Positions 2,921 to 37,300 of a DNA stretch of 64,000 nt are shown here, piece by piece. This DNA comes from a virus (lineage: Duplodnaviria > Heunggongvirae > Uroviricota > Caudoviricetes), in IMG/VR virus record IMGVR_UViG_3300028797_000094, positions 166,524 to 230,523 of that record; one strand, written 5' to 3'. The notes below the pieces were generated by a model. The model was not told the origin of the DNA. It ran no database searches and saw only the letters and a list, made by a program, of their open reading frames with translations. Numbering within the stretch: position 1 is the stretch's first letter; every line of letters begins with the position of its first letter. Position numbers and translations under genes: made by a program.

Positions 2921-5578
2921 ATGGCACTTATTGAACATATAAGAAATAGTTTAGTAGACAGTACTGGTAAAATTCGTGAATATTATCTAGCTGAAAATGT
3001 AGATGATGCTTGATTTCAACAAGTAGTTTGTCTTTTAAGTGAATTAAAAACTGTACGAATTTCTATAAATAATGGAAGTTCTTGAACTACTGTAACTAGC
3101 CGTGGTAATGTAAATTTATGTGAATTATTTTATGGCTCTGGTACTAGCAGAGTTTTGCCAGCAAATGCAAATGTAATAATAGAAATAAGTGAATATGTAG
3201 CCCCAGTTGATTATTCTGGTAATGGCTATTATAATAGTGCGAGTATAACTACTGGTGGAACTACTTATACTCCAGTTAGCAATCGTATAACTGTTCCAGT
3301 AAATAAGATAACTAAGACAATAGCAGATGTAAAAGGAACACCAGAAACTTCAACAATTACTATTGATTTTCCTTTACATGTTGAATCTGTTTCTATTGTA
3401 TATAAAGATAAAAATGGTCAAGAACAAACACTTAATATGACTAGAGCTCAATATGATGCTTATATTCAAACTTATGGAACGCATCCAACTTTAGAGTGTT
3501 GATCAGGAACAAGTGCTAGTGTAACTAAAACATATGAAGCTGGTTATGAATCAGGTGGAAGCAGTACAACTGAAACTGATTGAGCTATTGGTAGACCTAG
3601 TGGTGGAACACAAGGTGGAAGTGGTAATGTTTATTATATAGATGATGAAGGTCAAGTTTCAGATGATCCAGCAGATTTAGGTGATCTTGGTGATGATGAA
3701 AGCCCAGCAGTAGAATCATTTACATTTACTTTGACAAAGAACTCGCATATTGATACTATTAAAATTTGAAGAACAAGTTCTCCTTATCAAGGAGCTGCAA
3801 CTTCAACAGAAAGTAGTCCATTAATTAATGGTACTGGAACTGCAACTATTTATTATGGTGATGTTTTAGCTGGTAAAGCTTATGCTGCTACTGGATATCA
3901 TTTTGGTTCATTGAACTCTAATACAACATCTACTTTTTCAAATGCTAGTGTTACAGCAAATGACTCTTGGAGTCCAACTGTTAACTTAAATAGCTACAGT
4001 ATTAAATTCTTAGGCCCAACATCAGGATATGGTAGTTGGAATGTAGATGAAATAGATGCTTATCATGGTGATGCTATCTCAAGAAGCTCTAATACAGTAA
4101 CAATTACAGGAAGAGGCAGCTCTACATTTACACCACCTTCTAATACTGCTCAATATTACTATACTGTAACTTATCCAACTATTTCATCACCTGTTACTGC
4201 TGCAGCAAGTATTAGACCAACAGTTACTCGAAATACTCAAACATATACTATTACTTTAACAAATGAAAACGGCTACTGGGAACAAGGTGCTACTACTATA
4301 ACACAAATTACTAATGTGCCTTATGGTACAGCAATTAGTAAATCAGGAACTACTTTAACAGTAGGCTCTACTAATTATAGTTTTAATGCTAATAGTGCTA
4401 CGGCACAATATACTTATTCTAATCCTCAGATAGTTGCTTTTGCTGGCTCAACTGTAACAGGTAATATGACAATACATGGAAAAGCAACTGCTAATTTAAG
4501 ATCTTATACTGTAACATTAAGTAGTACTAATGGTTATTGAAAAAATTCTGGTGGCACTACAGTAACAACAGCTGGTAGTCGTAGTTATGGAACTACTATG
4601 AGCAAATCAGGAACTACTTTAACTGTTGGGTCTGATACTTATACATTTAATGCTAATGCTAATACAGCTCAGTATAATTATACTAATCCAACAATTGGAA
4701 CAGTACCTTCAACAGTAACTGGTGCACATACAATTTCTGGCTCAGCTACTAGAACACTAAGATCATATACAGTAACAATCTATTATCATTTTGAAGGAAC
4801 TCCTCTATGGTCAGATAATCGTGTCTTTAATTATGGCACACAAGTAAATCCAGATATATATTTTGAAAATTATTCTGATAGTAATTATACATATAGTACT
4901 GCAACTTATGATAATCCACAACAAGATAGTGACTTTGAAGTAACTGGTGATAGAACAGTTTCTGTACATTATATTAATAGAACATTTACTGGTACGGCTA
5001 CTATAACATTTACAAATCCAAATTATGGATACTGAGATTATAATAGTAAAACTGCAACAGCTAATGATTATTTATATATAAGTGGAAATACTGTTACTTG
5101 TAGAATTGGTAGCTCTAGTGGTTCAACTAGATGAACTAATACACTACATCCAGATCCTCAAGATGATGAATTTACTTATACAGCTAGTATAACAAGTTCT
5201 TCTCGTACTGTTAATACTGCTAGTATAAGTATTTCAAGCTCTTCAAGCTATGACTATAGATATTACTATATTCCAGTTACAATATATTTCTATGTTGATG
5301 GTACATATCATCATCAAGCTACAGCTGCTCAATTTGGTCCTGTAACTTACTGAGAGACTTTAAACTCAGAAACAGCTGAGGATATTGGTGGTGTTCCAAG
5401 TTCATTCCAGGTAGAAGGACCAGGAGAAGGTGATCTTAGAGAAGCCACTCTTAGCTATGCACGTATTTCAACATCATCTGATGGAAAGTATAGCTCTACT
5501 TGAAGTGGTCGACCAGTTGAAGTAAGTAGATTTTATGTAAAAGCTTATTATATTACAAATGGTGGAGATGGAGACTAG
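2921..5578 (+). CDS. 885-aa virion-type protein with repeated beta-rich domains (TGA read as Trp)
   Basis: ATG follows an AAAGGA RBS. Track ORFs 3155, 3911 and 4598 share one frame, broken only by about 10 TGA; the gene ends in TAG. Internal repeats align NGY-TGG (4277) with NGY-TGA (4538). Confidence 0.8.
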
Positions 5579-5592
5579 AAAGGAAATTATTT

Positions 5593-7230
5593 ATGAATAG
5601 AGAAGACTTATTTAATATTATAAAAAATTCAAGTTCAGAATATAATACTATTTCAAAGATAGAGAATTTAACGGAAAAATTACCAACACTAAATTCTACA
5701 GATTTTAAAGTATTAACTGAAAATCCTATACTACTTAAAATTATTAGAAATTATTTAGCAAACGCAGAAGATTTAGAAGATGATTTTAAAGATTTATTAG
5801 AAAGAATTATTAAAGAAGTTCCAAGCAATCCGATTATTATTGGCGTTGCTGGAACTTGAGGTAAAACCACAACTTGTAATTTATTATATAAATACTTAAG
5901 AGCTATCGGAAAGCATGCTTGTTTAATAAGTAGTTCTAAAATTGAATGTCCATTTTTTAAGTATGATAGTAATAATTCTCATATTAATACTATTTCAGAT
6001 AATAACTATATTAAAGAATTTGTAAAAAAAGCATTAATGTCTAATCCTGATTATATTATTATTGAAGTACATGAATTAGAAATTTGCAAACGTCAAGCTA
6101 ATTATAATGGTACTATGGCTACTCAAGCCTTTAGAAATTTAGCACCAGGACAAACTATTTTGGATGATATTCCTTTTGATTATAAAATTTTAACTAGTTT
6201 TGAGGAAGCTGTTGTTATGTCAGCATTTCCAAATGAAGATATAGTAATAGCAATAAAAGATTTTATTATTCCACAAGAAAATCAAGTTAGTTTTATTAAT
6301 CTTAATGGTTGCAGTAATGCAGAAGCTATTTATAATTCTTGCAAGTCTGGTAATCTTAAATGGCAAGCATCTACAATTTTAGCGAGACATCAAAATTTAT
6401 ATAATATATTAAAAAATGAAAATAAAATATATAGTGAGATTACAAACTTTTTTACTAATATTGATGGATGTGATGTTTCTTTTGACCTTAATGGTACTAC
6501 TTATATAAGTACAATTTCTAATAAATTTGAAATTGCAGTAGATGCTGTATCAGTTGCAAGTATTTTAGAATATTTAAATTTATTTGATAAAACAGTTTTT
6601 GATAATTGTCTTGCAACACTTAAACAAGCTGATCAAATTATAAAACTTACAAACAATAGAAAAATTATTATTACTCAAAATAATTATATTGATTATACTA
6701 ATGTGTATAAACTTCATGAAATAAATCCAGATGCATTTGCGGGAAAACCACAAAATAGTAAAGTTATTGTAATACAAAGTTCTCCATCAAGATATGGTTA
6801 TGGTATTGGTACATATGAAGAGTATATTAGTAGTAAAGCTGCCGTAGAACCAATTAGAAAGCATGATTGAATTGATAGTAATTGTTGACAGTATGTAGAT
6901 AAGCTAATTATTACTCCTGATAGCCCTGGTGAAGTAACACCAGAACAAGCTTGTGCAGATGTTAAAGAAATTTATGATAAATATTTACCAAAAGAAAATA
7001 CTTTAGAAATAGTAGAAGAAACTGATAGAAAATTAGCAATTAGTCAGGCTGTAGCAAATTTAGAAACAAATGATATTTTAATTATTAGTGGACGTGGTAC
7101 ACGTACTCAGTATTTTTGTAAAGCAGATAAAAAAATACATAATGGTCATGAAGTTATATTATTTTCAGATTTATCAATAGTATTACAAACTATTAATGAT
7201 ATATTTGGAATGGACACTATAATTGGATAG
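5593..7230 (+). CDS. Mur-ligase-like (MurE-type) ATP-dependent amide ligase 1, 545 aa (TGA read as Trp)
   Basis: P-loop GVAGT[TGA]GKTT, IIIE motif, and C-terminal DRKLAISQAV..NDILIISGRG. Three TGA, one inside the P-loop; ends in TAG. Confidence 0.75.
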
Positions 7231-7244
7231 GAGATTTTCAATAT

Positions 7245-8498
7245 ATGATACTATATGAATATATTAATGATAAAACATTAGATGAGAATAAGGTAAATAA
7301 TATAAAAATTATTGGTGTTACTGGATCTGCTGGCAAATCTTCTGTAATTACATTATTACATAAATTTTTTATAGCAAATAATATAAATGTTGCAAGTTTT
7401 TCTACTATAGGTACCTATATAAATAATGATAATATTCAAAAAAATAATACTTATTCTTCTATAGCAACTAAAAATGCTCTAATTAAATTTATATATCAAG
7501 CATACTTAAATAATTGTGAGTATATTATTATAGAATTGACGGCTGAAAATTCTTCTCAGACTTTTTGAGAAAATTTACCTTTTGAAATAATTGCAATTAC
7601 AAATTTAATCGGAGATCATTACTGACATTTTGACTCGGTTGAAAATTATATTAAAGCAAAAGCAAATTATTTTAATAATAATGTTAAATATAAAATAATA
7701 AATAATTTTGGTGAACTTGCTGATGAATATTCAGAGTGTGTTCCAGAAGCTCAAGATGAAATTCCTCAATTGCTGCAATATATTAAAAATAAACAAAATA
7801 TTTATTATTTTGGAAATCATCAAACAGATAATTTAGTGTTAGAACAATATAGCTTAATGCAGGATACTTTTAAAGCGTGTCTAAAAATTAATAAATATAA
7901 AGATACTATTTATACAAATTTATTTGGTAAAAGTAATATTGAAAATGTTTTATGTTATCTAGCAATATTAGATAATCTGGCATTACTAGATTTTGATAAC
8001 TATAATATTATAAACTTTTTACAAGAAGTTACAATAGATGGTAGAAGTGAATTGATAACTATTAATGAAAGATTTATATTTATAGATACATTTTATGAAG
8101 ATTTAGCTGGGGCTCGAACTGCACTAGATTATATTCAAAATAAAAATCCTATTGTAGTATTAGCTACTGGTTGTTTAGGAGAAATTGAACCGCTGTTAAA
8201 AACTTATTGATTAAATTGCAAAAATTTAATTTTAACTAGAACTTTTCGCTATTCTTTATTATTAGAAAAATGTCATATTAAAGCATTAGCGCATTATTAC
8301 AGAAATTTAGGTGATAAGGTTATTATTGAGTATGACAGATATGAAGCTGTTAAAAAAGCTTGTGAATTATCACAACCAGGTGATTATATTATTTTATTAG
8401 GTAAAGGCACAGAAAGATATCATAAAGAAAGCCAAGATGAGACAAATATAGTATGAGAAACTGATAAAGAAGTTGCTCAGCATTATTTAGGAGAGTAA
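7245..8498 (+). CDS. Mur-ligase-like protein 2, 417 aa (TGA read as Trp)
   Basis: GVTGSAGKSS, TNLIGDHY[TGA]H (compare MurE TNLxxDHLDYH), DGRSE and DRYEAVKKA..PGDYIILLGKGTE. Four TGA; ends in TAA. Confidence 0.85.
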
Positions 8499-8499
8499 T

Positions 8500-9297
8500 A
8501 TGATATATGTAAAAATAAATACTTCTACTATGTGTTCACCAGATGAACAAGACTCTATAGCTATATCAAAATTTGATTATTTTAAACTAAACTGTGGCGC
8601 ATTGATATGAGAAAATAATATATTAGTACAAAATCCTGAATTTATACAAAATTTTTTTACTGAACAAGTTTATGGAGTAGAAATAGAATTTTCTTGTAAA
8701 GAAATTTATAATTTATATTTAGCTTTAAATAAAGCCGGTATAAAATATGTAATTAGTAATAAAGCTCATGAAGCAGATTATGAAAATATTGTCATTAAGC
8801 CAGAGATTAGTGTAAAGCATGGTTATGAAATTAATTTTCCACCTGCTTATTCTAGAATTTCTGATGTGCTAAGTATTATCAGCCAATATGTAAAAATCAC
8901 AAAAAATTGTGCTTTACATGTACATATAAGCGACCCGAGATTACATATTGATATTCTTCCAACATTTACTGAGAAATATAAGCAATATGAATTGACAAAC
9001 ATAGCTTTACTCAAGGAACATAATTTATATCATATTTATAGTAGCATAGATTTAACAGCTGATGAGCTAAAGTCAATAGAGCAAGAAAGTCTTGTTACTA
9101 ATTATAATAATATTGAATCATTATTTGATAGAAGAAGACTAACTTTAAACGTATTTAAGGCTTTTAAAAGACATAGAACAGTAGAATTTCGTTTATATAA
9201 GTCTACTCTTGATTATACTGAATTAATGTTTTGTGTAAATAATGCAATAGAGATTGTAAATAATTGCTTAGCTGATATAAATAAAGAGACAGAATAA
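8500..9297 (+). CDS. Putative amidoligase (COOH-NH2 ligase family), 265 aa (one TGA)
   Basis: YGVEIEF, NCALHVHIS and TVEFRL motifs. The frame is open from ATG 8500 apart from a single TGA at 8608. Confidence 0.7.
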
Positions 9298-9310
9298 TCT
9301 GTCTCTTTTT
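9285..9310 (+). terminator. Intrinsic terminator
   Basis: AGAGACAGA-ATAA-TCTGTCTCT followed by a T tract; identical 26-mer at 10548. Confidence 0.85.
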
Positions 9311-9322
9311 ATTTATTTATTT

Positions 9323-9338
9323 TTTGCTAAATTATATG
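9323..9338 (+). promoter_or_regulatory. Putative late-type promoter motif TTTGCTAAATTATATG
   Basis: Intergenic, and recurs near 13432 (minus), 26600, 54304 and 55407, with a variant at 48974. Confidence 0.5.
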
Positions 9339-9389
9339 GAATATAAAACTTTAGTTTTATTTTAAGTGTCTAAAGGAGAAAATAAAATT

Positions 9390-10541
9390 ATGACTATTGA
9401 TCAAGTACAAAAATTATTATTAGATGGTTATATTACAGCTGAAGAAAGTGATTCTTTGCTATATGAATATACTATTTGAGATGAAAATACCCATACAGTT
9501 CTTAATAACCCAGCATGACATCAACCAGACCTAAAAACAATTAAAAAGATTGGTATAACTGGCAGCTTTGGAAAAACTTGTACCTGTGAAATACTTTATC
9601 AGTATTTACGAGCTAAAGGAAAAAGTTGTTTATTACTGTGTACAAATGGTATATTTATAAATGATAGAACTGTTCAAAAAGATTTTTTAGCTACATCTTT
9701 CTCAAAAGCAATGCTTTTAAAGTTATTAAATGGTCTATGTGGGGCAAATTCTATAGATTATGTAATTATTGAATTAGCAGCTGAATTAACTACTTATTTT
9801 AATAATAATCTTTTTATTGATTATATACAATTAGATATTACAGGTTTAACTTTCTTTTCACAAAATTTAACTGCTCATTTTAATAATGATACAGCATTTT
9901 ATCAAAGATGTAAGGATAAAGTACTTGGATTAGCTCCAATACGTTTTGTACCTTCAACCTGCACAGAATTTAATTATACAGATATTTTTGAAAATGTAGA
10001 AAGCTTTAGAAATTATAATAAAAGTCAATTAAGAAACTGATCACTCGCAAAAGCAATATTACAAAAATTAGGTGAATATACTATTCCAGAAGAAGAAATT
10101 CCAAATTTCTATATTCGTGGCCGTTATGAAGATTTTTTAAATAATAAAATTATAATTGATACTTGTTGAAGTGGAATACGACATTTATGTGAATGCTATA
10201 AGCCATTAAATAAAAAATTTAGAGTAATATATGTACCTATTTTTTGACCAGACATTAATCAATCTATAATAAATTATAGGCGACGTCAATTACCAACTTT
10301 AGCAAGTTGTGAACATGTTTATATAACTGATCCGAAAGAAATTACTGTAGAAAAAGATTTAGATTTTTATAAAGATTTTTTACCAGAAGATCACAGTAAT
10401 TTTGAATATATTTTTGGCTGGGAAAATTGTGTACGAAAAGCTATAAATGAATTACAAGATGATGAAATTTTATTAATAGCTTGTAGAGAAAACTTTAGAG
10501 CTTTTAGACATATCTTGGTTGATTTATTAGATAAAGAATAA
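9390..10541 (+). CDS. Mur-ligase-like protein 3, 383 aa, divergent (TGA read as Trp)
   Basis: AAAGGAG RBS, GITGSFGKTCT P-loop, VIIE and IRGRYE motifs. Five TGA; ends in TAA. Confidence 0.7.
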
Positions 10542-10615: not shown

Positions 10616-12625
10616 TTATTTAATTTCTATATAAGTATTAGGTTTTGTCTTAATTGCGACTACACCGCCGGCAGTTCGACCTTTTGTAATAAAATCTTTA
10701 ACATTAATAAGTTTATTTTTCTTATTGTAAACTGCTTTAATACTTGTTTCATCGTCAACATTTTCACAATAGATAATTTCATCTTTATCATTTACTTTCA
10801 TCACAGGTGCACCTGCAAGTTTTGTTAAACCAAATACAATATTTGCTTCAATTTTCTTTGCAAGACCACATTTTGTAATAAAGAATAAATAATCTTTATC
10901 TTCAAGTCCTGTGAAAATATTTATAATCTTTTCGTTCTTTTCTAAACAATTAAATAAAGTTCCTGATAGATTTTGTTTTACATTTGTATTTAATGTTTTT
11001 TCTTCACATTTATACATTGTGCCTTTATTTGAAATTAAAACAAATCTATCTTTTTTATTTATTTCAATAAACTTAATATCAGTATTATTTAATTTATTTC
11101 TATTAAAGATTTGAGAAGAAATTTTTCTAATTTTGCCTTCATTATCAAGAATAATAATAAATTTTTCTTCTTGTTTTTCTTGTTTTAATGTTTGTTTTTC
11201 TTCTTCTAAGTCAACATCAATAACTTCTGTTCTACGTTCCCAGCCAAACTTTTTAGCAAAATCATTTAATCTTTTTAAGAATTCTTTTTGTTGTAATTCT
11301 TCTGAACTTAAAATTAATTTGCAGTTAATAATTAAGTTATTTAAATCTTTTTGTTCATTAACTAATTCTTGTTGCTCAAGATTTGCAAGTTTTCCAAGTC
11401 TCATATCAATAATTGCTTTAGCTTGGTTTTCTGTAAAAGTAAACTTAGAAATTAATTTTTCTTTTGCAAGCTCAGCAGATTTAGAAGATTTAATTACTTT
11501 AATAACATCATCAATAATAGACAAAGCAGTAAGCAAACCATTAACAATTTCAAGTCTGTTTTCAGCTTTTTCTTTATCAAAAGTATATTCACGAACTAAA
11601 CATTTAATATTATGTTCAACATAAACTTTAATATAATCTTGCAAAGTTAACATTTGTGGAACACCATCAACAAGTGCCATTTGATTTGCATTAAAAACTA
11701 CTTGTAAATCAGTTAATTTGTATAATTTACTTAAAACTAATTTAGGTTCAACTGAACATTCTATCTCAATAAATAAACCATTATCATCAGATTTATTGCA
11801 AATATCTTCAATACCTGTTAAAGTTCCAGCATTAACTAAATCTTTAATTTTTTGAATAAAAGGTTCGGCATAAACTTGATAAGGAAGCTCATAAATGTTA
11901 ATATATTTGCCTAAAATTTCAGTTTTTCCTCTTAAAATTACTTTACCACGACCTGTTTTATAGATTTCAGACAGGTCTTTTTTATTTATAATGATACCAC
12001 CAGTTGGAAAATCAGGATAAATATCAGTGAAAGTAATTTTCTTTTTAGAAATATATTGTTTAACTTTACTTACAAACTCATTTAAGTTGCCAGGTTCCCA
12101 TTCTTGTGCAATAGTATAACCAATTCCTTGACTACCATTAACAAATAATCTTGGAAAAATAGCAGGAAATACTGACGGCCATTCGTCATCTTCTGAAAAA
12201 TTAGGAATCATATCAATTACATTTTTCTTTATGTTTTTAAATAAGCCATCTTCTGCAGCTTTTGATAGACGACATTCAGTATATCTCGAACTTGCTGCTT
12301 CTGGCCCACCTAAAAGTGAACCATTTGCGCCGTGAAAGTCAACTTCAGGAATATTATTTAGCCATTCTTGTGACATACGAACAAGTGCTTCATATGCAGA
12401 ACTATCACCATGTGGCCATAATTCACCAATAACAGCACCTGTAATTTTTGCAGACTTTACATGTGGCTTATCAGCGGTAAATCCTTTTCTAAACATTGTA
12501 TATAGAGCAGCTCTTTGTGCCGGCTTTAATCCATCACGAGCATCTGGAAAGGCACGATTATTATTAACTTCTTGAGCATAAACAAGAAAATCTGTTTTTA
12601 ATTCGTCTAAAATGTTAATTGACAT
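10616..12625 (-). CDS. Type IIA DNA topoisomerase subunit A (GyrA/ParC family)
   Basis: RAFPDARDGLKP, WPHGDSSAY, catalytic AASSRYTE and PDFPTGG motifs; short C-terminal domain. All Trp are TGG. Confidence 0.95.
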   Translation of the reverse strand: MSINILDELKTDFLVYAQEVNNNRAFPDARDGLKPAQRAALYTMFRKGFTADKPHVKSAKITGAVIGELWPHGDSSAYEALVRMSQEWLNNIPEVDFHGANGSLLGGPEAASSRYTECRLSKAAEDGLFKNIKKNVIDMIPNFSEDDEWPSVFPAIFPRLFVNGSQGIGYTIAQEWEPGNLNEFVSKVKQYISKKKITFTDIYPDFPTGGIIINKKDLSEIYKTGRGKVILRGKTEILGKYINIYELPYQVYAEPFIQKIKDLVNAGTLTGIEDICNKSDDNGLFIEIECSVEPKLVLSKLYKLTDLQVVFNANQMALVDGVPQMLTLQDYIKVYVEHNIKCLVREYTFDKEKAENRLEIVNGLLTALSIIDDVIKVIKSSKSAELAKEKLISKFTFTENQAKAIIDMRLGKLANLEQQELVNEQKDLNNLIINCKLILSSEELQQKEFLKRLNDFAKKFGWERRTEVIDVDLEEEKQTLKQEKQEEKFIIILDNEGKIRKISSQIFNRNKLNNTDIKFIEINKKDRFVLISNKGTMYKCEEKTLNTNVKQNLSGTLFNCLEKNEKIINIFTGLEDKDYLFFITKCGLAKKIEANIVFGLTKLAGAPVMKVNDKDEIIYCENVDDETSIKAVYNKKNKLINVKDFITKGRTAGGVVAIKTKPNTYIEIK

Positions 12626-12640: not shown

Positions 12641-13396
12641 TTATACTTGTATATTAGGTCATTCATGGCCTAATCAAACATTTCTAAAAGTACTTTTTTT
12701 CAGTCCTATTTGTCTATAAAAAGTCTCATAAACTGTTTGTCAGTTTTCGCCATTTTTTCGTCTCAATCTTATATCTTTTACCATACTTTCATCTAAAATG
12801 GCTCTACCATTCTTAGAACCTTTACAGCCAGTATTATTTTTATGAAAGTTTTTATTTTCTTCTGTATAAACTTCTGGCATTATGTCGCTTCAAGTATGAC
12901 CTTGTCAAATTTTTTTAAAGCCAGATGGACCTATTTTATCTTTATATAGTTCTTCTACCTCATAACGACGCTCATGATTAGCATATCTTGTTCTAATATC
13001 AATAATATCTTCTATAGTTAATTTATGATTTGGATGTTTATCATCTCCGCTAAAACCATCATTATCACCACCATCAGTAATATTATAACCGATATCTCTG
13101 TTTTGGGTATTAAGTTTAGTAATTCAATATTTTTCAAATAAGCCTAAATCTTTTTTATCACATATTTCTATGATAGTAAATTCAAAATTTTCAACACCAT
13201 ATAATTGAAATGCTTTGTATAACGGCTTATTTGGTTCTTTCTTTCAAGAAGACTCTGAACAATGTTGTGCTCATCTTTTTTTAATATTAGTAGATCTGCC
13301 AATATAAAGTTTATTATTTACTAAATTTTTAATTTGGTAAATACCGCAAATTGCTTCTTCTCTAGCATAAGCTTCATGTAATTCTTTGAATGTCAT
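12641..13396 (-). CDS. Free-standing GIY-YIG homing endonuclease, 251 aa (TGA read as Trp; absent from the ORF track)
   Basis: GIYQIKNLVNNKLYIGRS, KR[TGA]AQH, EKY[TGA]I and GYNITDGG, plus two C-terminal repeats ending I[TGA]xGxT[TGA]-like. AAGGAG RBS; about 8 TGA and no TGG; ends in TAA. Confidence 0.9.
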
Positions 13397-21741: not shown

Positions 21742-21742
21742 A

Positions 21743-25519: not shown

Positions 25520-25520
25520 T

Positions 25521-26647: not shown

Positions 26648-27568
26648 ATGCCAGAAGAAAAAGAATGACAAGACTTTAATAGAACTAACAATAGAATTGA
26701 AAATAAGGATGTTGTAGCTATTGAAAAAAATGTTGAATATTTAAAAGAAACAAAATCAACAGTTTCTGTTCCAGAAGAAATTTCTGGAAGTGCTCCAGAA
26801 ATTGAAGGCTTAATCATTGATGGAACAACATATAAAATTCAAACATTAACAGAAGAACAAATTAATGCTATTAATTGGGCTTTTCAAAAATGACAAAAAG
26901 AAGAGGCAGAAGCAAACAAGCCAGAAATTACCAGTTTTATAGTAAGTCCAACTTCAGTAGTTCCTGGAGAAACAGTTAATATTAATTTTTCTTTTACAGT
27001 TAATAGAATAGCTAATGTAAAAAAAGATGAAAATGATAAATATATAATAAAAATAAAATTAAAAAATACTGGTGCTTATCTTGTTGATCAAAATGCTATT
27101 GATTGAAGTGCATCCCCATATACAGCTAGTTTAGAAATGTCTACTATTGAAGATCAATTCTATGCATTAGAAGTAACACCAGCAAGTCAATATTTAGTAG
27201 ATAAAATAACAAAAGATGTAGAAATTTTAGTTGGCTATCCTTGTTATTATGGTAATTTGGCAGCAACTACATTTACCGCTGCTGATGTTTTAGATAATAC
27301 AAAGTTTACTCGTGTTCAAAGCTGACCAGCAGAAGGCATTCAAATGACTACTCCAACTAATAAATATACATTCTGAGTAGTTCCAGAAAGTTATTCTACA
27401 TATACTCCAGAAAGCAATATGCCTGAAGATTTAGAAGTAATTCCTGGAATTTCAATTACTTTAGATGGCCATAGTTATTATGTTTACAGCCCAAATTGAA
27501 CTATTGCTACTCAAACACTTGATTTATTTCAAATAGAAGTAACTGATACATATAAGCTTAATAGGTAA
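26648..27568 (+). CDS. 306-aa probable virion protein (6 TGA read as Trp)
   Basis: AAAGGAG RBS; single frame to TAA; first TGA at codon 7. Confidence 0.7.
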
Positions 27569-27579: not shown

Positions 27580-30500
27580 ATGCCAAAAATTTATAGTAAA
27601 TTAGTAAATCCAAAAGGTAGCAAAGTTGCTGATTTAAAAGATATTGATTTAGGTAATGCTGAGGAAATTAAAGGTAAGGTATTATTTATTAATAATAGTG
27701 GAGAAGCTGAATGAAAAACCCCTGGTTCTGTTCCTGAATTAAAGGGTGATAAGGGTGATAAAGGCGATCCAGGTGAAAAAGGTGCTGATGGTGCTCCTGG
27801 AGCTGACGGTGCTCCTGGTGCTGATGGTGCTCCTGGTGCCATAGGTCCACAAGGTCCTGCTGGTGCTGATGGTGAAAGCATTTATACCATTACTTTAGAT
27901 AATGATTTTGATTCAATTCCATGTGCAGCTGATGGCACTCCAAGTTATACCCCACAACAATGAATTGATCAAACAAGTCATAATATTAAAGTTTTTTGTG
28001 GAACAAGTCAAGAAGAATTTTTAATGTCTGACACAGTTCCAGTAGTAAATGATAATATTTTAACAGTAGTATATGAATATGATAGTACTAAACTTACTGT
28101 ATATAATTCATGGCCAGTTGTAGCAGTTAATAATTTTACACAATATATTACAGCATTAAATTCTGATAAAGAAGTTATCACTTATAAATTGTATAAAGGT
28201 AGTACATGACTTGCTCAAGCTAAATTTGAAATTTCAAAGCTTCGTGCTGGACAAGCAGGTGCAACAGAAACTATTTCAGGTTTTCATGAATATTATTTTG
28301 CCTGCAATAAATCAGACTATAGTGAGTTTCCTGCAGCAGATAAATTCATAATTAATGAGCAAGTTAATACTAAATGAAAAGAAGATATTTCTCAAATTAC
28401 TTTTGATGAAACTCATCAATATTTGTGAAATGGTGAAGAAACTGTTCTATATGATAGTGTTACTGGTACATCAAGAAGTTTATTTACAGCACCAGCATTG
28501 CTTGGTCATTTTGCTGTTGATGGTAAAGGTATTCAAAGTATTGAAAATTGATATTTAGCTACACCAACAGATGAAACTCCAGAGTTTACACCAGCTTCGC
28601 CATGAAGTCAAACATATATTGTGCCAGACGGTAATAATTTATATGTTTGAAATGTTGAAAGAATTATTTTTTCAGATCTTTCACAAACTGTAACCAATCC
28701 TACAATTGTTACATCATTAGGTGTTCCTGGTATACCTGGAAAAGGCATTGATGGATTAGTTGAATATTATTATACATCAAATACTGATAATTATGAAAAT
28801 ATTCCATCATCTCAAAAATTTATCTATAATGGTGAAATTAATACTGCTTATTGAAAAACTTCAACTACTGAAGTAATTTTTGATGAAGAACACCCATACT
28901 TATGAAATGGTGAATCAATTGAATATGATGATAATACTCATCAAGAAACTTCACCAGTTGTAATTGCTAATTGGTCTGCAGACGGCCGTGGAATTGATGA
29001 AATTAGAAATTATTATGCAAGAACTACTACAAATAGTAGACCACCATTCGTATTCGCAGATTTAGATGATCCTGAATCTGCAACATATTTAGCTGGATGA
29101 TCTATTACTTATGTGGCTCCAGATGCAGAAAATAGATATTGTTGAAATGTTGAAGTTATTTTTTATAATGATGATACAATTGAAACAACACCAGTAGCTT
29201 TGTGCTCATATTTAAGTGAAGATGCGGTTGATACTACAATTCATTTAAGTACAAATATTATTAGAAAAGCAAGTGATGATGTTACTTTTAATCCAACTGT
29301 AATTACTGCACAAGCTTTTGCAACTACTGGTTCTGGTGAACCTTCTGAAGTTACTAATAATGTTTATTGAAAATATTGATATAATAGTGATACTGCAAAT
29401 GCTCAATATGCGAGTGACATTATAGCACCATTAAGTATTAATGTTATAGCTAATACTGAAATAATTACAATTGAAGCTTATTCAGATGAAAATTATCTTA
29501 ACTTATTAGATAGACAGACTGCAAATGTAATTCATGATGGTCAAGATAATGAAGCAATTTATAGAGTAGTATTAGATAATAACTTTGATTCTGTACCTTG
29601 TGATGCAGATGGTATTATTTCATATACAAGTTCAGACTGACATAATCAAACTGCTCATACTTTTAAAGTTTATTTTGGTAATGAACAACAAAACTTTAAA
29701 ATTGCCAAAAAAACAGACCCAGTGGTAAGTACACCAGATTTAACTATTTTATATTCACTTGAAGCAGTAACATTTGAAAGTAGTATTGATTCTAATATAG
29801 CTATTTCTAGTCAAACTGCTTATTTAAATTCACTTACTGCAGATAAAGGTAAAGTTCATTATGAATTATATAAAAATGGTGAACAATTAGCTTGGGCTGA
29901 TTTTGACATTGTAAAAATTAAAACAGGTAAAGATGTTGTAGATTATTATATTTTAACAGACTATTCTGCAATAGGTAGAGCTGGTGATGGACAAACAATT
30001 ACTCCAGCACAATTAGAAATAAAAGCTTATAAGAAAGTTGGTAAAGATCTTCCAACACTTATTACACTTGCACAATTAGCACAACAAGATCGTGAAGTAG
30101 ATTTAGTTATTAAAAAAGATAATACTACTGTAACATTAGATTCTAATTATAAAGTTAGTACAAGTGGATTAACAGATAAATTTGAAATTGAATTAAAGAA
30201 CCATACAGATAATACAATTTTATATGATAAAGAAACAGTGTTACTAGTAAAAGATGCTGTTCAAACTTATGGACATACTGTTTTCTGTGCTGACCCAGAA
30301 GGTTTAACTCCAGAAGCTATAGATTATTCACCAAGTGTATCAAAAAAATACACAACTATATATTGAGATGGCAATGTAAATGCTGCAGCAAATTGAGCTA
30401 GTTTACCAGCAAATTTAAATTGATCTTTATATCAACCAGCTACTATTGTTAGTGTAATAAAACAATATGCACAACAAGATAAAGCTATTTCAACAGCTCC

Positions 30501-33500
30501 TGCAGAAAGTTCTGAGCTATGGGTTAATGTTCCAGGAGCTTATGATCAAACTAAATATTATTGGGAAAGAACAAAAACAACTTTTGATGATGGAACAATT
30601 TCATATTCAGTTGGTGTTAAAAATGAAGAACTAAATGAATGCTTTGTATTAGCACAAGGTAGAACTAAGTCTATTAGAGGCACCCGTAATGTTATGTGAA
30701 GTTTGCGTGATCAATTAAAAGTTGATGATATTTGATTCTGTACAGAAGATTATTATCAAAATTCACATAGTAGTACTCCACAAGATGCTAATGATGAGCT
30801 TATTTTTGAAGCTAATAATTTATATGTAATTAATGAAATTACTAAAGAAGCTGGTGCTGTTACAAATATTAGTTTTGATCAAGTTGTTAGTGAAGAAATT
30901 GTTAATAAGTTAACAGCAAATTATATTGACGCTCATGAAATTACTGCCGATCTTATTAATATTATAAAAACTAGTGGTGGTCAAAGCAGTACTATATTTA
31001 AAGCTGATGGTAGAAGAAGTACACAAGAACACCCAATTTCAGATGATGATAGAGTTCAAATTGGTGGATTTAAAGTAACTGATAGTTCTTTACACACTGA
31101 GGGTCTTACAAGCATGTCACAAACTTATCCAATAGATCCTAACACTGGTGAACGTGCAATAGATCCTGAAACAGGTGAACCAATTTATTTAAATGGTGTT
31201 TATGTTGGTACTGATGGTATTAGACTTGGTGAAAAATTTAAAGTTGAACCAGATGGTACAGTTACTGCATCTGATTTCCAAAAATGAATTAGAAATGATG
31301 TTGATTATCAAGTAAGTAATTCAGGCTCACAAATTCCAAGTACTTGGGATACTTGAGCTAATGTTATAAATAATTATGTTGATGGTACTTATTTATGAAC
31401 TAGAACAACACCAGTTTACCAACAAGTTGGAAGTAACCAATATAGTAGAGGTGAAGCAACTTATACAGTTTCTAGTAAAGGTATTGAAGGTACTGCACCT
31501 CATATAGATGCTACAACAGGAAATTGATTTATTGGAAATACTGATACAGAAGTTCATGCAGAAGGTCCACAAGGTATTCCAGGTGTTTCTTATACAATTA
31601 ATATTGAAAATGAATATGTAACAATTCCTTGTGATGATACAGGTGCTCCAATTGATCCAATTGATCCAAATTGAGCAACAACTACTAAGCATACTTTAAC
31701 ATTTTTAGAAAATCTTAGTAGAATTGCTGTAGATGATATTACTATTTCTAGCACTATACCAAGCTCTGGTACAGGCTATACATTATATTATAATATAACA
31801 GGCTTTACTACAATTCGTGGCCCAAGAAAAATTGGAACTTATACTATTTCTGCAGATGTTACAGCAATGCCTAATGCAACAGCAACTGGATGCATTGACT
31901 ATAGCTTATATAAAGGAACTATTTTAGTTGCACAAGCTAAATTTGAATTAGTTAAACAATTAAATGGTGCTGATGGTGTAAGTCCAGTAATTTATAATAT
32001 TAAAAAAGATATTAGTTATATTGCTAAGACAACTGATACAAATAATCCATATAAACAATTAGGTTTTAGTTTTGGTTTAGACAAAATTGAAGGTAGTACT
32101 ACAAGCCCAATAAAAGCTTTTTACTATGAAATTATTGTAGACAATACTGCTACTCCTATTCAAGGTTCTATAGATGAAACTTCAACTGGTGATGGTCTTA
32201 TTGATGTTGATCTTTCTGCAACACATGTTGCTGGTGATTATAATATAACTCCAAATACACAAGTTGAACTTAAAATTTATAGTGATAATTCTTATTCAGC
32301 TGCTAAATTATTAGATAAAGAAACCATTATGGTTGTTTCTGATGGTGATGATGGTGATACTCCAGAAATTATTAATGATTATTGATATATTAATGGCACT
32401 TCAACTGGCGTAAAAGCATTAGGACAAGATGGAACTTCACCATATACTATAAGTATTACTAATGATTTTGATTCAGTATCAGCAGACAATAGTTTAGAGT
32501 ATGATGATAGTTATGCTTTTGCAACTCAAACTTTACATACTGTTAGTGTATATTATGGAAAAGATTTAGTTAATTTTATAGTAGTAAATTCTGCACCAAG
32601 TGCTTCAGATACTGGTGTAAAAGTTTATTGTCATGTAGATAGCGTAACTGCAAAATATACAACACATAGCTCTGCAGATCATTTTGATAATTATCTTGAT
32701 AATAGTAGTAGTTTAGCATTTAACCCTAGATTATCTGCAAAAGGTAAAATTATTTATGATTTATATGTAGATGGTCATTTACAAGATTCTACAGAATTTG
32801 TAGTAGTAAAGAATAAATCTGGTGCTGATGCAATTGACTACTATATGATATTAGATGCTAATACAATTAGTATTGATGTAAATAATAATAATGCTATTTC
32901 ACCTTCACATATTATGCCAGCTGGTCGTAAACAAATTGGTAGCGGCAGTGCTTCTGCTTTTCCAAATGCTGGTTCTAGTACTCCTAACTATTATAAAGTA
33001 TATTGGGATAATGATTCAGAACATCCAATTGATTGGACTGCCCTTTATGATACGGGTATTCCTACAACAGGAGCTGCAAGTCATACTAGATTAAATATTG
33101 AATTATATAAAACTACAGATAAAGCAGCTGCTGATTTATTAGATAGAGAAACTGTAGCTGTTGTTAAAAATGGTAAAACTCCAGTTAAGGGCACTGATTA
33201 TGATGATGGTAAATCTATTACAATGCAAGCTAATGAAGCTGCTTGTCAAGCTATTGGTGATGGTTATATTAATTCAAGTGATGGTCATTTATATGTAGTA
33301 AATGCTACTAGTCCATCTATAACTTTTACAGATTGTGGTAAAGTTAAACCAATTAAAGGTACTGATTATGATGATGGTACTCCTGCTCCATATATTACAA
33401 GTACTGTACCTCAATATATAAGTTGAAGTATAGAAGCTCAAACAGATCCAACAGGATCAGAAGATGAGGTTGATGCTGCACATAATACATATGGAAAATG

Positions 33501-35814
33501 ATGTGAAGTACCATATAATTATGATGCTTCATATAAATATTGAACAAGAACTGTAACTACTTATAGTGATAGCACTCAAGCTAATCCACATATAGATAAA
33601 AGTACTCCAGTTTTATGTCAAGAATTAAATGAAGCATTTAGTGTTACACAAGGTAAATCTACGACTTATTATAGCTCAACTATCCCTGAGAATCCAAATA
33701 AAGGTGATGCTTGATTCTGTACTGGATATATAGATGTGGAAGGTGATCCAGTAAATAATGTTCATAAATATGACACAGATACACGATATGGCGCACATAA
33801 ATGAGTAATTGGGCCAGATGACAAATTTTGATTTACTTTATATGATACTTTTACAACAACTACAAGTTGAGAAGACTTTAAATCAGCTGCCCAACCAATA
33901 GAATGAAGTACTATTAATAGTAGTTCTGAATGATTTAGATATAAAATTGCATATTTTAAAAATACTTTATATCAATGAGATGGCGCAGCTAGTTATCCAA
34001 TATGACATCCAATTAGTGATGAAATAATTGCAAATAAAGTTACTGCAACTTATATTAATTCATTAGGAATTACTACTGCAGGTATTGAAGTTAAAAATGG
34101 CAATAATACAGTTTTATCTGCTTATGCTGATCAACCAAACAATGTTATCGTTGGTGGTTTTACTGTTGGAATAGATAGTTTAACTAAAGCTACTAATAAT
34201 AGCTATGTTAAACTTGGCACAGATGAAATTATTTTAGGTAAAGCTATTAATAATAATTTATATCCATTTAAAGTTACAAATTCTGGTAATGCAACAATTA
34301 ATTCTGCTAATATTGGATTGCCTTTAGCTTTTGCTTCGGGTGTATATTGAAAAACTTTACCAACAGATTTTGATCATGGCTGACCACTATATAATCCACA
34401 GACTGGTGGACAACATACGCTTACTTTTACTTTTCCATCTGAATCAAAAGTTGATGATAATGATGATACAAGTTATGTACTTGACAGTATTGCAGTAGAA
34501 GCTAATGATAGTAGTACTGTAATATCAGAAACAATAGTTGGAAAACAAATTAGTAAATTATCAGCAACTGTAAATAGAGAAGTTATAACTAGAAATAGCG
34601 GCGAGCCATTTGGTGAAATAAGATATGAAGTAATTATTTTTGCAGATGCTGCAAAATTTAGTAGCAGCACTCCAGTAGTTAATATACAAATAACTGCTAT
34701 AAAAACTAATTTTTTAACTAGTAGATCTTATACATCAACTAAAAGTAGCTTTTTAGAAGCTAGTACTTGCTTAGGTCATAATGAAAATGTTGCTGGCTAT
34801 ACTAATTATGCAAGTGCTGATTGTATTACTATTAGTAACGGTGCTTTGCAATTTAATAATGCAAAATTAAGTAAATATGGTATTACTATTACTGATTTAA
34901 ATGATCAAGAACAGTTTACTCCTTGAACAAGCGTACCTGGTAGTTTTGGTCATTTTGTATATAATGAATTAACTAATTGAACACCAGTTAATTTAACTTT
35001 AGCTGATTCAGCTGTTAAATTAGGTGATTATGTAACTATGCAGTTTGCAGCAGATAGTACAGCAAATCCATTTAAAAAATTTAATTATCCACAACCTACT
35101 ACTCTTAATTTACCATTAGATAAAGCTTTACCAGAAGGTTTATTATATAATAGTGTAAAGGGTCAAGTATTTGGTTTATTTCCTAATACAGTTAATTTAT
35201 GAATAACTGGTACAAATAGTAATACAGTTTTAAATATTTCTGGAAAAGTATATAATAATTTTGGTATTGATACAATGCCGATTTTACCAACTGCACCATT
35301 AATTATACCTTTGTGCTATTCAGAAGGTTATGGTGGTTATGTAGCAACAGGTGTCATGATTAATAATTCAACATTAAAAGCTTATAATATATTAGGATAT
35401 GAAGATCAAACTGATAATAAACTTTATTTTCTTTTTGCTGTCGCTCGTCCATATATTTATACATATGATATAAGTTATAACGTTCACTTTACAAATGTTA
35501 GAGTTGGTGGTACTTTAATACCAGATAGTAATTATTCTTTTAAACAGGTTGGCGGAAGAACAGACTTTATTAGACCAGAAGAGGTTGTATTTGGTAATGG
35601 TATAAATAGATTTTTACAAATAGATTTATATGGTATGTATTATACAGGATTTGATAAGAATAGTTCTACTACGCACCATATTACTTTTGATAGCTGTGTT
35701 GAATATTCATATTTAGGTAAAGATAGTCATGATCGAGACGAGTGAAAAGCATCTACTGCTAATGGTACAAGTCTTGATGTATCTGTAATAATGAAAGGAG
35801 CAATAATAGACTAA
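27580..35814 (+). CDS. 2,744-aa tail or receptor-binding-type virion protein with a collagen segment and repeated domains (TGA read as Trp)
   Basis: Read codon by codon: no TAA or TAG from ATG 27580 (AAGGAG RBS) to TAA 35812. About 43 TGA against about 8 TGG; recurring YL[TGA]N.E and ND(F)DSxPC repeats. Confidence 0.85.
27745..27879 (+). repeat. Collagen-like Gly-X-Y tract (15 triplets)
   Basis: GDK GDK GDP GEK GAD GAP ... GES. Confidence 0.9.
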
Positions 35815-35957
35815 TGAACAACAAAGATAAATTACAAAAAATAGAAAGTTTATTTAACAAATATGATGGACAACTTGCACCAGTAAAAAATAATGAAGAA
35901 ATTAAAGTAGTAGAGACTGAAGAACAAACAGACTCTACTACTGAAAGTGAGGAATAA
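35814..35957 (+). CDS. Small acidic hypothetical protein (47 aa)
   Basis: TAATG coupling; AAAGGAG upstream. Confidence 0.45.
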   Translation: MNNKDKLQKIESLFNKYDGQLAPVKNNEEIKVVETEEQTDSTTESEE

Positions 35958-35959
35958 TT

Positions 35960-37300
35960 ATGTATACTTTAAATGATGCAGTTATTATTGGAATTACTGG
36001 TCGTAGTGGTAAATCTTCTACTGCTTATCTTGTTCATGAGTATTTAAAAAGTATTGGTAAAAAGTCAATTATTTATAGTTCATGCTTAGTAGAATCACCA
36101 GCAAGTTTTGCAGAAGACGGCGTATCTTATGATTTTGCTTTTAGTTCTGAAAGAGCCATTGTTAATATTTTAAATGAAGCTATTGCTTATGAAGCAGAAT
36201 ATATTATTTTAGAGTGCTGAGAAGCTTCTATTGCAAAAGGTGTGTTTGATAATATTCCATTTGATATTAAATGTTTAACTAAGTTTTATTACACAGGAAA
36301 TGGTCATATTTCAGCTGAACAAGTATATCAAAATAAATTAAGATTTTTTAAAGATGATGAAGATGCTATTTGTTTATTTAATATTGTGGGTGATGAAAAG
36401 TATACTCCAGATTATTCAACTTCAAGAATGATTTCAGAAGCTAATTGTTCTAATGTAGTATTATATGATTCAATTGGACTTAAAGACTGATTTATGGCAG
36501 ATTCAAGCTTGGCACCATATGATGTTATTTTTAGATGTCGTGGTCAAATTGCAAATAATTTTACAGCTAATGATGTAAAATATTATGCAAATGGTAGAAC
36601 TTTTGGATTAGAACAACAAAGTGCAAATTTATATTGTAATGGAACAAATTTTAATATAAATACAACACTTGCAGGTAGTGCTCATTTAGAAAATATTGTT
36701 AGTGCAATGGCAATATTAAATGAAGCCGGTGCATTTGATATAGATGCTTTTCAATCTTTTATTTCTAACCCAGATTTACAAATTCCAGGTCGTATGGAAG
36801 ATATTGAGTATCAAGATAAAACTATTATTATAGATACTGATGCAGATAGTGCTTTACCTATAATTAAAAGATTATCTGGTAATCGTAGAATTGTTGTAGT
36901 TGATTCTTATCGTTTAACAAAAATTGATAGTAATGAGCAATATAGAAAAGATAATCCTGATATTTCTTATGAATATAATTTTGATTATGAACCATCAATT
37001 TTAAATCAATATGCAGATTTTGTTTATGTTACAACTGATGATATATGTGATTTACATGAAGGAATAATTATTAGTAATTTTGCTAGTAGACTTACTGTTC
37101 CATATGAAATTATAAGTGATCGTAAACAAGCAATTAGAACTGCTATTGTTGAAAATGGTGATAATCATAATGATATTATTTGTATTTTAGGTAGAGGTAA
37201 TAGAGATATTAGATTTACTGGTTACCACTCAATTGAGTTATTTAACGATAGAAAAGTTGTTCAAGAAATATTAGAAGAATTAGAAAATGAAAGGAAATAA
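35960..37300 (+). CDS. Mur-ligase-like protein 4, 446 aa (2 TGA read as Trp)
   Basis: GITGRSGKSS, IILE, NIVSAMA, IPGRME and DRKQAIRTAI..DIICILGRG motifs. Three track ORFs lie in one frame. Confidence 0.85.

Follow-up and report, generated by a model that had tools for sequence, protein, structure and literature searches.

UGA-to-tryptophan recoding partitioned by promoter class in a complete jumbo phage genome from the bovine gut

The stretch of DNA analysed here (the window, 64,000 nt) belongs to a complete 237,392-bp phage record with a GC content of 29%, derived from bovine gut metagenomes. UGA is read as Trp in this genome, and the choice between TGA and TGG follows the promoter class of the gene. 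Very probably, the record represents a jumbo phage of virulent type that infects a low-GC, standard-code bacterium of Gram-positive lineage in the cattle gut or rumen and turns UGA from a stop into a Trp codon part-way through infection. Documented below are the altered code, its partition between genes and a recoding kit, together with the class of promoter ahead of this kit; related phages conserve all of them. The genome is a clean example of an already described phage trick.

Genes were called along the entire contig by greedy ORF tiling, once with code 4 and once with code 11, a comparison proposed in the initial annotation. Code 11 yields 309 genes with a mean length of 538 nt and a density of 69.9%. 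With code 4 the density rises to 93.2% (254 genes, mean length 874 nt), which counts for UGA = Trp recoding. The same drop under code 11 and recovery with TGA as sense codon are seen in the related genomes G001 and G002. Annotation with code 11 goes wrong for genomes like this one.

The identity of the encoded residue was inspected in 68 related loci. Opposite the TGA codons of this genome (G000) these loci have TGG (50%), TGA (14%), Tyr (16%) or Phe (11%), and Trp, Tyr and Phe together account for 91%. In the standard-code relatives G003 and G005, TGG is found at 64% and 57% of these positions, respectively. The remainder is mainly Tyr or Phe, the share of Trp, Tyr and Phe is about 80–84% in the two genomes, and the profile is the same as that of the phage's own TGG codons. 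The TGA-encoded W958, W1150, W1376 and W1461 of a GH2 domain correspond to invariant Trp residues of solved GH2 enzymes (PDB 6mvh). The conserved Trp sites noticed earlier in the phosphoesterase (CGH-W-HAS, W228) and the GIY-YIG endonuclease (KKR-W-AQH, W42) are both encoded by TGA. The Trp content of TGA-free genes is 1.06%; for genes with TGA it is 1.38% when TGA is counted as Trp and would be 0.34% otherwise. The alignment with TGG in relatives, the GH2 sites and a Trp-like tRNA(UCA) thus bear out the initial reading of UGA as Trp.

There are 456 in-frame TGA and 466 TGG codons in the whole genome, and their distribution among genes is highly heterogeneous (χ2 = 591, 218 df, P = 3e-36). Among the 122 genes with at least three Trp codons, 67 are pure, compared with 13 expected and a maximum of 25 in 2000 shuffles. 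The TGA-free set comprises 119 genes, among them those of replication and nucleotide metabolism, with 295 Trp codons, none of which is TGA (0/295). These same genes prefer the A-ending codon in every other A/G pair (77–96%). DnaB helicase, primase, SSB and the UvsX-like recombinase have no TGA. TGA is carried by portal, protease, sheath and fibre genes and also by enzymes (Mur-ligase-like, amidoligase, PhoH, Nudix, GH2, glycosyltransferase, papain-like protease, GIY-YIG endonuclease). The partition is conserved between G000 and G001, with 70 orthologue pairs TGA-free in both, 48 with TGA in both and 7 discordant.

Three promoter classes are recognized. Class I is sigma-A-like (TTTACA-N17-TGTGATATAAT), class II has the motif TTGTATAATA and class III, the late type, the motif TGCTAAATTA, also written TATTTGCTAAATTAWWTG. 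All class III motifs are intergenic (30/30). Promoter class was compared with the Trp codons of the first gene at most 150 nt downstream. The TGA/TGG counts are 103/41 for class III, 7/63 for class II and 1/27 for class I (Fisher odds ratio 28, P = 2e-24), and the pattern is repeated in the recoded relatives G001 and G002. Exceptions to the rule are the gene at genome positions 23970-26036 (7 TGA), downstream of a class II-like motif, and a few TGA-free genes downstream of class III motifs. Promoter class serves as an independent proxy of timing, with the presumed temporal order of the three classes taken from gene content only. The late bias of TGA noticed initially therefore exceeds chance and tracks promoter class. 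The features of the window are as follows.

3..2906, plus strand: 3' part of a 1122-aa late-class ORF; 1 TGA/1 TGG; no family match
2921..5578, plus strand: 885-aa ORF; 10 TGA/4 TGG; no family match
5593..10541, plus strand: TGA-class enzyme cluster; TGA/TGG 3/1 and 4/0 (two Mur-ligase-like), 1/0 (amidoligase-like), 5/1 (391-aa ORF)
9325-9334: TGCTAAATTA motif 5' of the 391-aa ORF, the last gene of this cluster
10616..12625, minus strand: DNA topoisomerase II subunit; 0 TGA/5 TGG
12641..13396, minus strand: GIY-YIG homing endonuclease between the two topoisomerase genes; 8 TGA/0 TGG
13424-13433, minus strand: the endonuclease's own TGCTAAATTA motif
13483..15414, minus strand: DNA topoisomerase II large subunit; 0 TGA/4 TGG
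15425-15434, minus strand: TTGTATAATA motif of the large subunit
16160..17110, plus strand: metallophosphoesterase; mixed, 4 TGA/6 TGG
18330..26582, plus strand: TGA-free block with two DUF5662 genes, ThyA, formate-THF ligase, FolD and others
20347-21225, plus strand: ThyA (PF00303); 0 TGA/8 TGG
23014-24633, plus strand: formate-THF ligase, in the TGA-free block
24644-25519, plus strand: FolD, in the TGA-free block
26599..26608, plus strand: class III motif TGCTAAATTA heading the giant-gene operon
26648..27568, plus strand: 306-aa ORF; 6 TGA/1 TGG
27580..35814, plus strand: 2744-aa ORF (giant gene); 43 TGA/8 TGG
35960..37300, plus strand: Mur-ligase-like ORF; 2 TGA/0 TGG
37509..62960, plus strand: TGA-free replication/middle block with DnaB helicase, primase, SSB, PolA, processivity factor, UvsX-like recombinase and others; TTGTATAATA motifs head most genes
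42225-45224, plus strand: PolA; 0 TGA/13 TGG

The counts given initially for the giant gene, PolA, ThyA and the topoisomerase II genes were exact. The giant ORF may be a virion gene, as had been assumed, judging only by an N-terminal collagen-like repeat common to tail-fibre families; the remainder of the ORF has no assignment. The orthologues of the mixed metallophosphoesterase have TGA/TGG counts of 8/1 in G001 and 0/9 in G002.

The phage's own TGA-reading tRNA, which had been predicted, is present at the end of the window. It is part of a kit of tRNA(UCA), lon and trpS within 3.6 kb, in the same order in G001.

63276..63285, plus strand: class II motif TTGTATAATA; its TATAAT ends 7 nt 5' of tRNA base 1
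63291..63365, plus strand: opal suppressor tRNA, anticodon UCA (RF00005, 54.5 bits); A1-U72, CCA encoded
63377..63403, plus strand: intrinsic-terminator-like hairpin and T run 3' of the tRNA
63434..63443, plus strand: second class II motif, heading lon-trpS
63466..64000, plus strand: 5' part of the TGA-free Lon protease gene (genome 229989-232358; TIGR00763, 809 bits)
Genome 232345-233430, beyond the window, after lon: trpS (TIGR00233, 317 bits; cut-off 177)

The hairpin and T run make the tRNA a separate transcription unit. Its Trp-like features are G73, the loop CUUCAAA and acceptor and T arms that match bacterial tRNA-Trp(CCA), which is also its best cellular match. A tRNA array including tRNA-Trp(CCA) follows trpS outside the window. 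All kit genes are TGA-free and lie downstream of TTGTATAATA motifs. Release factors, RF1 included, gave no PF00472 match in the complete genome. Inspection of related phages showed that the recoded G000, G001, G002 and L133 (genomes or fragments) carry trpS and that the gene is missing from the standard-code relatives G003, G004 and G005, each of which is at least 95% complete; their code was assigned by whole-genome tiling (G003, G005) or from the capsid-region locus (G004 = L057). The tRNA(UCA) is not detectable in the recoded G002, though trpS is present.

The mechanism proposed from these features would proceed in four steps. Early (class I) and middle (class II) genes are written TGA-free and would therefore be translatable by the unmodified host. 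The middle set would then supply the stand-alone tRNA-Trp-like tRNA(UCA) unit and the lon-trpS operon. The phage TrpRS would charge the UCA tRNA with Trp. Subsequently, genes with TATTTGCTAAATTAWWTG promoters, which encode virion and fibre proteins, accessory enzymes and homing endonucleases, could be read through TGA. The scheme would further involve the presumed temporal order of the promoter classes, the putative host and an out-competition of RF2. For ORFs with 43 TGA codons (this phage) or about 100 (G001), read-through must exceed 99% per codon.

The initial annotation regarded the switch as a device by which late proteins await the tRNA. The partition by promoter class agrees with this idea; the purpose is less clear. 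There is about an even chance that the TGA bias plays no part in regulation, i.e. that AT pressure converts TGG to TGA in genes expressed after the kit, that purifying selection prevents this in earlier ones and that promoters alone set the timing. This explanation contests only the adaptive gate, not the code change. In TGA-class genes the A-share of the Trp pair (0.81) is taken as equal to that of Lys, Glu, Gln, Leu and Arg (0.84–0.97), and TGA codons are spread evenly along the genes. Class II and III motifs are found, also intergenic, in the standard-code genomes G003 and G005, so the late programme is older than the recoding. Recoded members of the family have a lower GC content (29–34%) than standard-code members (35–38%). 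Furthermore, the late major capsid gene has no TGA and keeps TGG in all of the 14 recoded genomes checked, which indicates that TGA decoding is a cost rather than a benefit. Given the late promoters of unrecoded relatives, the neutral TGA level and the exempt capsid, gating may be a consequence and not a selected function. On the other hand, a secondary benefit is compatible with the sequence, e.g. by locking late transcripts that leak or by protecting against superinfecting competitors. Translational gating would matter for the TGA-rich gene at 23970-26036 behind its middle-type motif, and lysis timing is favoured by Borges et al. (10.1101/2021.08.26.457843). The codon statistics fit exclusion before the switch plus AT-biased drift where tolerated at least as well as a selected timer.

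Tentatively, and with chances somewhat below even, the opal reassignment can be described not as a selected timer but as codon capture that was driven by AT pressure, was tolerated, and came on top of an older programme of three promoter classes; the cost of UGA decoding would then explain why the capsid gene stays TGG. As a weaker addition to this proposal, Lon, located where Jade phages have RF1, would help to remove RF2. If the proposal is true, this mixed-code family with defined promoter classes is a natural system for measuring stop-codon capture.

The initial annotation also had the host reading UGA as stop, and this part of it is supported indirectly. Anaeroplasmataceae MAGs contain the nearest cellular TrpRS (60–62% identity) and the nearest cellular tRNA-Trp (87% identity over 46 nt), which gives no more than a hint of this family as a candidate host lineage. 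These MAGs carry RF2, and the tRNA match in them is tRNA-Trp(CCA). The gene prfB scores above the curated cut-off in all five candidate lineages tested. It is very unlikely that the host itself uses code 4 and that the TGG preference of some genes stems from their expression level or recent transfer, although the genome is AT-rich and its closest cellular matches for TrpRS and tRNA-Trp belong to a mollicute-related family. The complete exclusion of TGA from the 119 genes against a strong A bias is not what a code-4 host would impose. Additionally, standard-code sister phages with the same promoter motifs use TGA as stop in about 15% of their genes, and with a code-4 host the phage would need no tRNA(UCA) or TrpRS of its own. 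In Mycoplasma, Spiroplasma and their viruses, a host-matched code 4 is used and tRNA-Trp(UCA) reads UGA as Trp. There the code is common to host and whole viral genome, whereas the present phage brings its own decoder and keeps TGA completely out of 119 genes.

In phages of Absconditabacteria or Gracilibacteria hosts, TGA encodes Gly (code 25). For the present phage, Gly or another residue at TGA, or an import of the TGA-rich genes from a differently coded source, can practically be dismissed: one TGA site in the PhoH P-loop is opposite Ala in a distant solved homologue, where Gly would be plausible too, but opposite the TGA codons Gly is essentially missing from the 68 loci and absent among the commonest residues of the two standard-code genomes, unlike in code 25 phages, whose TGA aligns with Gly. 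In the standard-code relatives these genes carry TGG at the corresponding positions, which means that the codons changed in place and were not imported; the two gene classes are alike in GC and codon usage, and the body of the tRNA(UCA) resembles tRNA-Trp.

Late-biased stop recoding, to which the initial annotation referred as known, is indeed described: Borges et al. (10.1101/2021.08.26.457843; Nat Microbiol 2022) reported stage-biased TGA-to-W recoding with a TrpRS/tRNA/RF1 module. As in Jade phages, the genome is about 200 kb in size, low in GC and from animal gut, several TGA-coded structural modules are scattered over it, a standard-code 'code change' set includes tRNA(UCA) and TrpRS, the predicted host is a standard-code Firmicutes type, and close relatives use the standard code. 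Unlike in Jade phages, there is no RF1 gene, Lon protease lies between tRNA and trpS instead, and the tRNA forms its own promoter-terminator unit. Stage-biased recoding with standard-code replication genes, mixed-code clades and low GC as precursor are shared with Agate (TGA), crAss-like and Lak (TAG) phages; these are different phage lineages, and crAss-like and Lak phages recode TAG to Gln in Bacteroidota hosts. TrpRS:tRNA(UCA) pairs of Jade-type phages have been examined biochemically. With the TrpRS:tRNA-Trp(UCA) pairs of phages AP1 and HF2, insertion of Trp at UGA was demonstrated both in vitro and in E. coli (PMC12636597). In this phage, TrpRS and UCA tRNA are likewise co-located as a putative pair, and the tRNA shares the G73 discriminator with AP1. 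Pairs of this type are already being mined for genetic-code expansion.

Stage-dependent phage codes are established, and the genome is an unusually clean data set on their selective value and on the defeat of RF2. TGA is excluded from 119 genes on an all-or-none basis, each gene class has an independent marker in its promoter, the charging kit is complete and lacks a release factor, and complete sister genomes, recoded and unrecoded, have a common promoter programme. An early AAA-ATPase gene ends in GAA TGA TAT TAG (L005:6080-6088), where TGA may be its first stop before the switch.

The window comprises bases 166,524–230,523 of a single contig of 237,392 bp (29.2% GC, 0 N), an IMG/VR virus record with 100% completeness according to CheckV. 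Several studies of the bovine gut have yielded metagenome runs with near-identical DNA. Along with 20 tRNA genes, the genome has an early region (84–111 kb) and a structural module (~10–68 kb) with portal, PhoH, prohead protease, major head protein, sheath and a 1672-aa tail fibre. Genes were re-predicted with tables 4 and 11, as suggested in the initial annotation, by greedy ORF tiling of the whole genome. With TGA as sense, 254 genes with a mean length of 874 nt are obtained at a density of 93.2%, compared with 309 genes (mean 538 nt) and 69.9% under table 11.

The residue read at TGA was assessed codon by codon against 68 related IMG/VR loci, retrieved via the major head protein. Opposite the TGA codons of the phage these loci carry TGG (50%), TGA (14%), Tyr (16%) and Phe (11%), and Gly is essentially absent; the profile opposite its TGG codons is the same. 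In two complete standard-code relatives, TGG faces 47 of 74 and 44 of 77 TGA codons. A 1596-aa late protein contains a GH2 domain in which four TGA sites coincide with invariant Trp residues of PDB entry 6mvh and two further sites with Tyr. In PhoH, the three TGA sites covered by the alignment face Ala, Leu and Val of PDB entry 3b85, a homologue too distant to be informative on the residue. The suppressor tRNA (window 63291–63365) has the anticodon UCA, A1-U72, G73 and the loop CUUCAAA; the corresponding loop of the phage's own tRNA-Trp(CCA) is CUCCAAA. An Anaeroplasmataceae MAG has a tRNA-Trp(CCA) that matches the suppressor in the acceptor and T arms (87% over 46 nt). Because codon alignments, GH2 sites and the tRNA-Trp-like suppressor agree, TGA encodes Trp, as proposed initially. 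Selenocysteine, suggested by the name 'SeC' that ARAGORN gives to every UCA anticodon, is rejected in view of 456 Trp-aligned sites and the resemblance of the tRNA body to tRNA-Trp. Codes 25 and 10 are excluded by the TGA-site alignments and the tRNA features. The base following TGA is T in 16–18% of cases versus 21% after all codons in three related genomes, each with a P of only 0.06–0.09; given these values and the relatedness of the genomes, the difference is not counted as evidence.

The 456 in-frame TGA and 466 TGG codons of the genome are distributed bimodally over the genes (between-gene heterogeneity: chi2 = 591, 218 df, P = 3e-36). Among the 122 genes with at least three Trp codons, 67 are pure; 13 are expected, and 2000 shuffles gave a maximum of 25. 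The per-gene counts reported previously were exact on recount. The giant ORF (window 27580–35814) contains 43 TGA and 8 TGG, PolA 0 and 13, ThyA 0 and 8, and the topoisomerase II subunits 0 and 5 and 0 and 4, respectively. TGA is also absent from the genes of helicase, primase, SSB and the UvsX-like recombinase. In total, 86 TGA and 21 TGG reside in the ten window genes that use TGA as Trp. In the other window genes, ~122 TGG were counted; none of their few isolated TGAs is unambiguous, and these lie upstream of the likely true start. With TGA counted as Trp, the Trp content of the TGA genes rises from 0.34% to 1.38%; that of the TGA-free genes is 1.06%.

The claim that every gene terminates at TAA or TAG holds in general, with one exception, the first early gene, which encodes an AAA ATPase. 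Its 3' end reads GAA TGA TAT TAG (genome 86080–86088, L005:6080–6088) and overlaps the ATG of the next gene. Translation of this gene probably terminates at TGA before the code switch. It is the only candidate for a pre-switch TGA stop, with TAG as a putative back-up afterwards.

Some TGA-free operons contain inserted TGA-rich genes, each with a late-type promoter motif of its own. These genes and one TGA-free module are:
window 12641–13433, minus strand: GIY-YIG homing endonuclease with its own late-type motif, between two topoisomerase II genes
genome 135144–135800 and 138172–138996: two unassigned ORFs (TGA/TGG 7/1 and 9/2) with their own late-type motif, flanking nrdD
window 19875–25519, plus strand: TGA-free one-carbon and thymidylate module with DUF5662, ThyA, a second DUF5662, formate-tetrahydrofolate ligase and FolD

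Three classes of promoter motif mark the gene classes. Trp codons were counted in the first gene located at most 150 nt downstream of a motif.

Promoter classes and Trp codons of the downstream genes
Class I: TTTACA-N17-TGTGATATAAT with upstream GAAAACGTTTTC palindrome, genome 84–111 kb; 1 TGA, 27 TGG, 12 genes
Class II: TTATTGTATAATA(A)TAT, upstream-region motif; 7 TGA, 63 TGG, 22 genes
Class III: TATTTGCTAAATTAWWTG, upstream-region motif; 103 TGA, 41 TGG, 26 genes

A GAAAACGTTTTC-type palindrome is found upstream of each class I promoter (genome stretches L005 and L006). Each of the 30 class III matches lies between genes, on the coding strand, and a single gene holds all 7 TGA of class II. 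Promoter class and Trp codon are strongly associated (Fisher odds ratio 28, P = 2e-24). The association recurs in the TGA-recoded relatives G001 (TGA/TGG 83/22, 12/68 and 0/14 for classes III, II and I) and G002, in agreement with the initial view that TGA is largely confined to late or virion-type genes. Class I precedes small unknown genes, class II the genes of replication, nucleotide metabolism and the recoding kit, and class III virion genes; from this content the classes are inferred to be early, middle and late, respectively. Expression would proceed from the TTTACA-N17-TATAAT genes to the TTGTATAATA genes together with the tRNA, and then to the TGCTAAATTA genes. No sigma-70 region 2 domain was found in the phage genome. 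Class II and III motifs are present, in intergenic positions, in the standard-code genomes as well; therefore the transcriptional programme is older than the recoding.

In the genes using TGA, this codon accounts for 81% of the Trp codons. The A-share of other A/G pairs in these genes is 0.84 for Lys, 0.92 for Glu, 0.94 for Gln, 0.95 for Leu and 0.97 for Arg. The TGA-free genes are equally A-biased at the same pairs (0.77–0.96), yet TGA occurs at 0 of their 295 Trp codons. The share of 81% is near the general A-share, and thus the anomaly is the complete exclusion of TGA from genes whose translation comes before the kit is made and not a late enrichment. Of the evidence internal to the genome, this exclusion argues most strongly that the uninfected host cannot read UGA as Trp. 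The code change affecting late genes, as interpreted initially, is supported by the partition, the kit and the codon bias. TGA might act as an adaptive 'timer'; a credible neutral alternative is that TGA is used at its neutral level wherever it is tolerated.

The kit consists of the stand-alone tRNA(UCA), lon and trpS and includes the following features:
window 63276–63285: TTGTATAATA motif, its TATAAT ending 7 nt before tRNA base 1
window 63377–63403: hairpin and T run downstream of tRNA(UCA)
window 63434–63443: second TTGTATAATA motif, heading the Lon protease gene
window 63466–64000, on to genome 232358: full-length Lon protease gene between suppressor tRNA and trpS

Judged from these elements, motif, tRNA, and hairpin with T run form a predicted self-contained unit. 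Lon (TIGR00763, 809 bits) is followed 3' by trpS (TIGR00233, 317 bits, cut-off 177) and a tRNA array; tRNA(UCA), lon, trpS and the array are all without TGA. The order tRNA(UCA)-lon-trpS is the same in G001. The whole phage genome contains no RF-1-domain gene. A tRNA(CAU) of G002 (L100:10631–10718), missed by ARAGORN, lies directly 3' of a TTGTATAATA motif like the suppressor here, which suggests single tRNA units driven by middle-type promoters in this phage family.

The ORF with 43 TGA needs ~99% read-through per codon to give 65% full-length product. In G001, the ORF matching genome 169444–172101 as orthologue has ~100 in-frame TGA and 39 TGG and demands near-complete suppression of UGA termination. 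The suppressor activity of a homologous phage tRNA(UCA) in E. coli is reported to be limited by RF2 (PMC12636597). Candidates for its neutralization are tRNA dose, Lon or something else. A link of Lon to RF2 removal is pure conjecture; among the phage and its relatives G001, G002, G003 and G005, lon is present only in the phage and G001 and is absent from the recoded G002, too.

Standard-code family members have a GC content of 35–38%, the two codes give them the same density, and ~15% of their long ORFs stop at TGA; the recoded members have 29–34% GC. The gene-by-gene partition is kept across recoded relatives: orthologue pairs with G001 comprise 70 free-free, 48 TGA-TGA and 7 discordant pairs, and those with G002 32, 28 and 12, respectively. 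In the comparison of trpS and lon with recoding (four recoded versus three standard genomes), trpS is present in the phage, G001, G002 and the recoded fragment L133 and absent from G003, G004 and G005, each at least 95% complete. The standard code was assigned to G003 and G005 by whole-genome tiling and to G004 by its capsid-region locus. When IMG/VR was scanned with TrpRS or Lon as single proteins, only the same few relatives were recovered, and an alignment query added one more fragment and one unrelated 608-kb phage. G002 encodes a tmRNA (L097:9640–10045, RF00023, 85.5 bits) in addition to trpS. ARAGORN found only four tRNAs in it and Rfam a fifth, and a tRNA(UCA) was detected neither by these programs nor by a custom anticodon-loop scan.

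The major head protein gene (genome 33682–35001, L002:13682–14998) is part of a late operon and has TGA-rich genes around it. It has 0 TGA and 3–4 TGG in the phage and in 13 of 13 recoded relatives, while its neighbours use 35–69% TGA. The pattern suggests that decoding UGA is costly in this gene, the most heavily translated of the late genes.

TGA-to-Trp 'Jade' phages of ~200 kb with several recoded structural modules have been described by Borges et al. (10.1101/2021.08.26.457843). Their hosts are predicted to be standard-code Firmicutes, their close relatives use the standard code, low GC is regarded as a precursor, and a TrpRS-RF1-tRNA(UCA) module is written in standard code. Two phage TrpRS:tRNA(UCA) pairs of this type, AP1 and HF2, insert Trp at UGA (PMC12636597), and a 2026 survey reported that 8.75% of rumen jumbo phages use alternative codes (PMC13037316). 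The phenomenon itself is therefore already known. The present analysis adds counts by which pre-switch genes exclude TGA all-or-none and late genes use it at its neutral level, a promoter test that holds in relatives too, the exemption of the capsid gene and a module that, unlike that of Jade, lacks RF1 and contains Lon.

Several signals hint at an Anaeroplasmataceae-type, Gram-positive host. The closest cellular TrpRS belongs to uncultured Anaeroplasmataceae (60–62% identity), followed by Bacilli and Erysipelotrichaceae MAGs. In two Anaeroplasmataceae MAGs the match to the suppressor lies in their tRNA-Trp(CCA), and prfB scores above the curated cut-off in five of five genomes tested. The class I promoters have an extended -10, a feature typical of Gram-positive sigma-A. 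A nucleotide search of window 20001–40000 against 301 genomes of the Anaeroplasmataceae order gave no spacer-like match. It returned conserved ThyA and formate-tetrahydrofolate ligase homology and one 4.7-kb binned contig with 79% identity (G205:C130), none of which counts as host evidence. The ligase (PF01268, 707 bits) shares 65–70% nucleotide identity with genes in many genomes of this order.

Two c-di-GMP-I riboswitch aptamers (RF01051, 60.8 and 65.1 bits) are arranged in tandem on the plus strand at window 55439–55512 and 55547–55626, upstream of a gene at window 55577/55619–56386. G002 has one such aptamer (L097:7003–7077).
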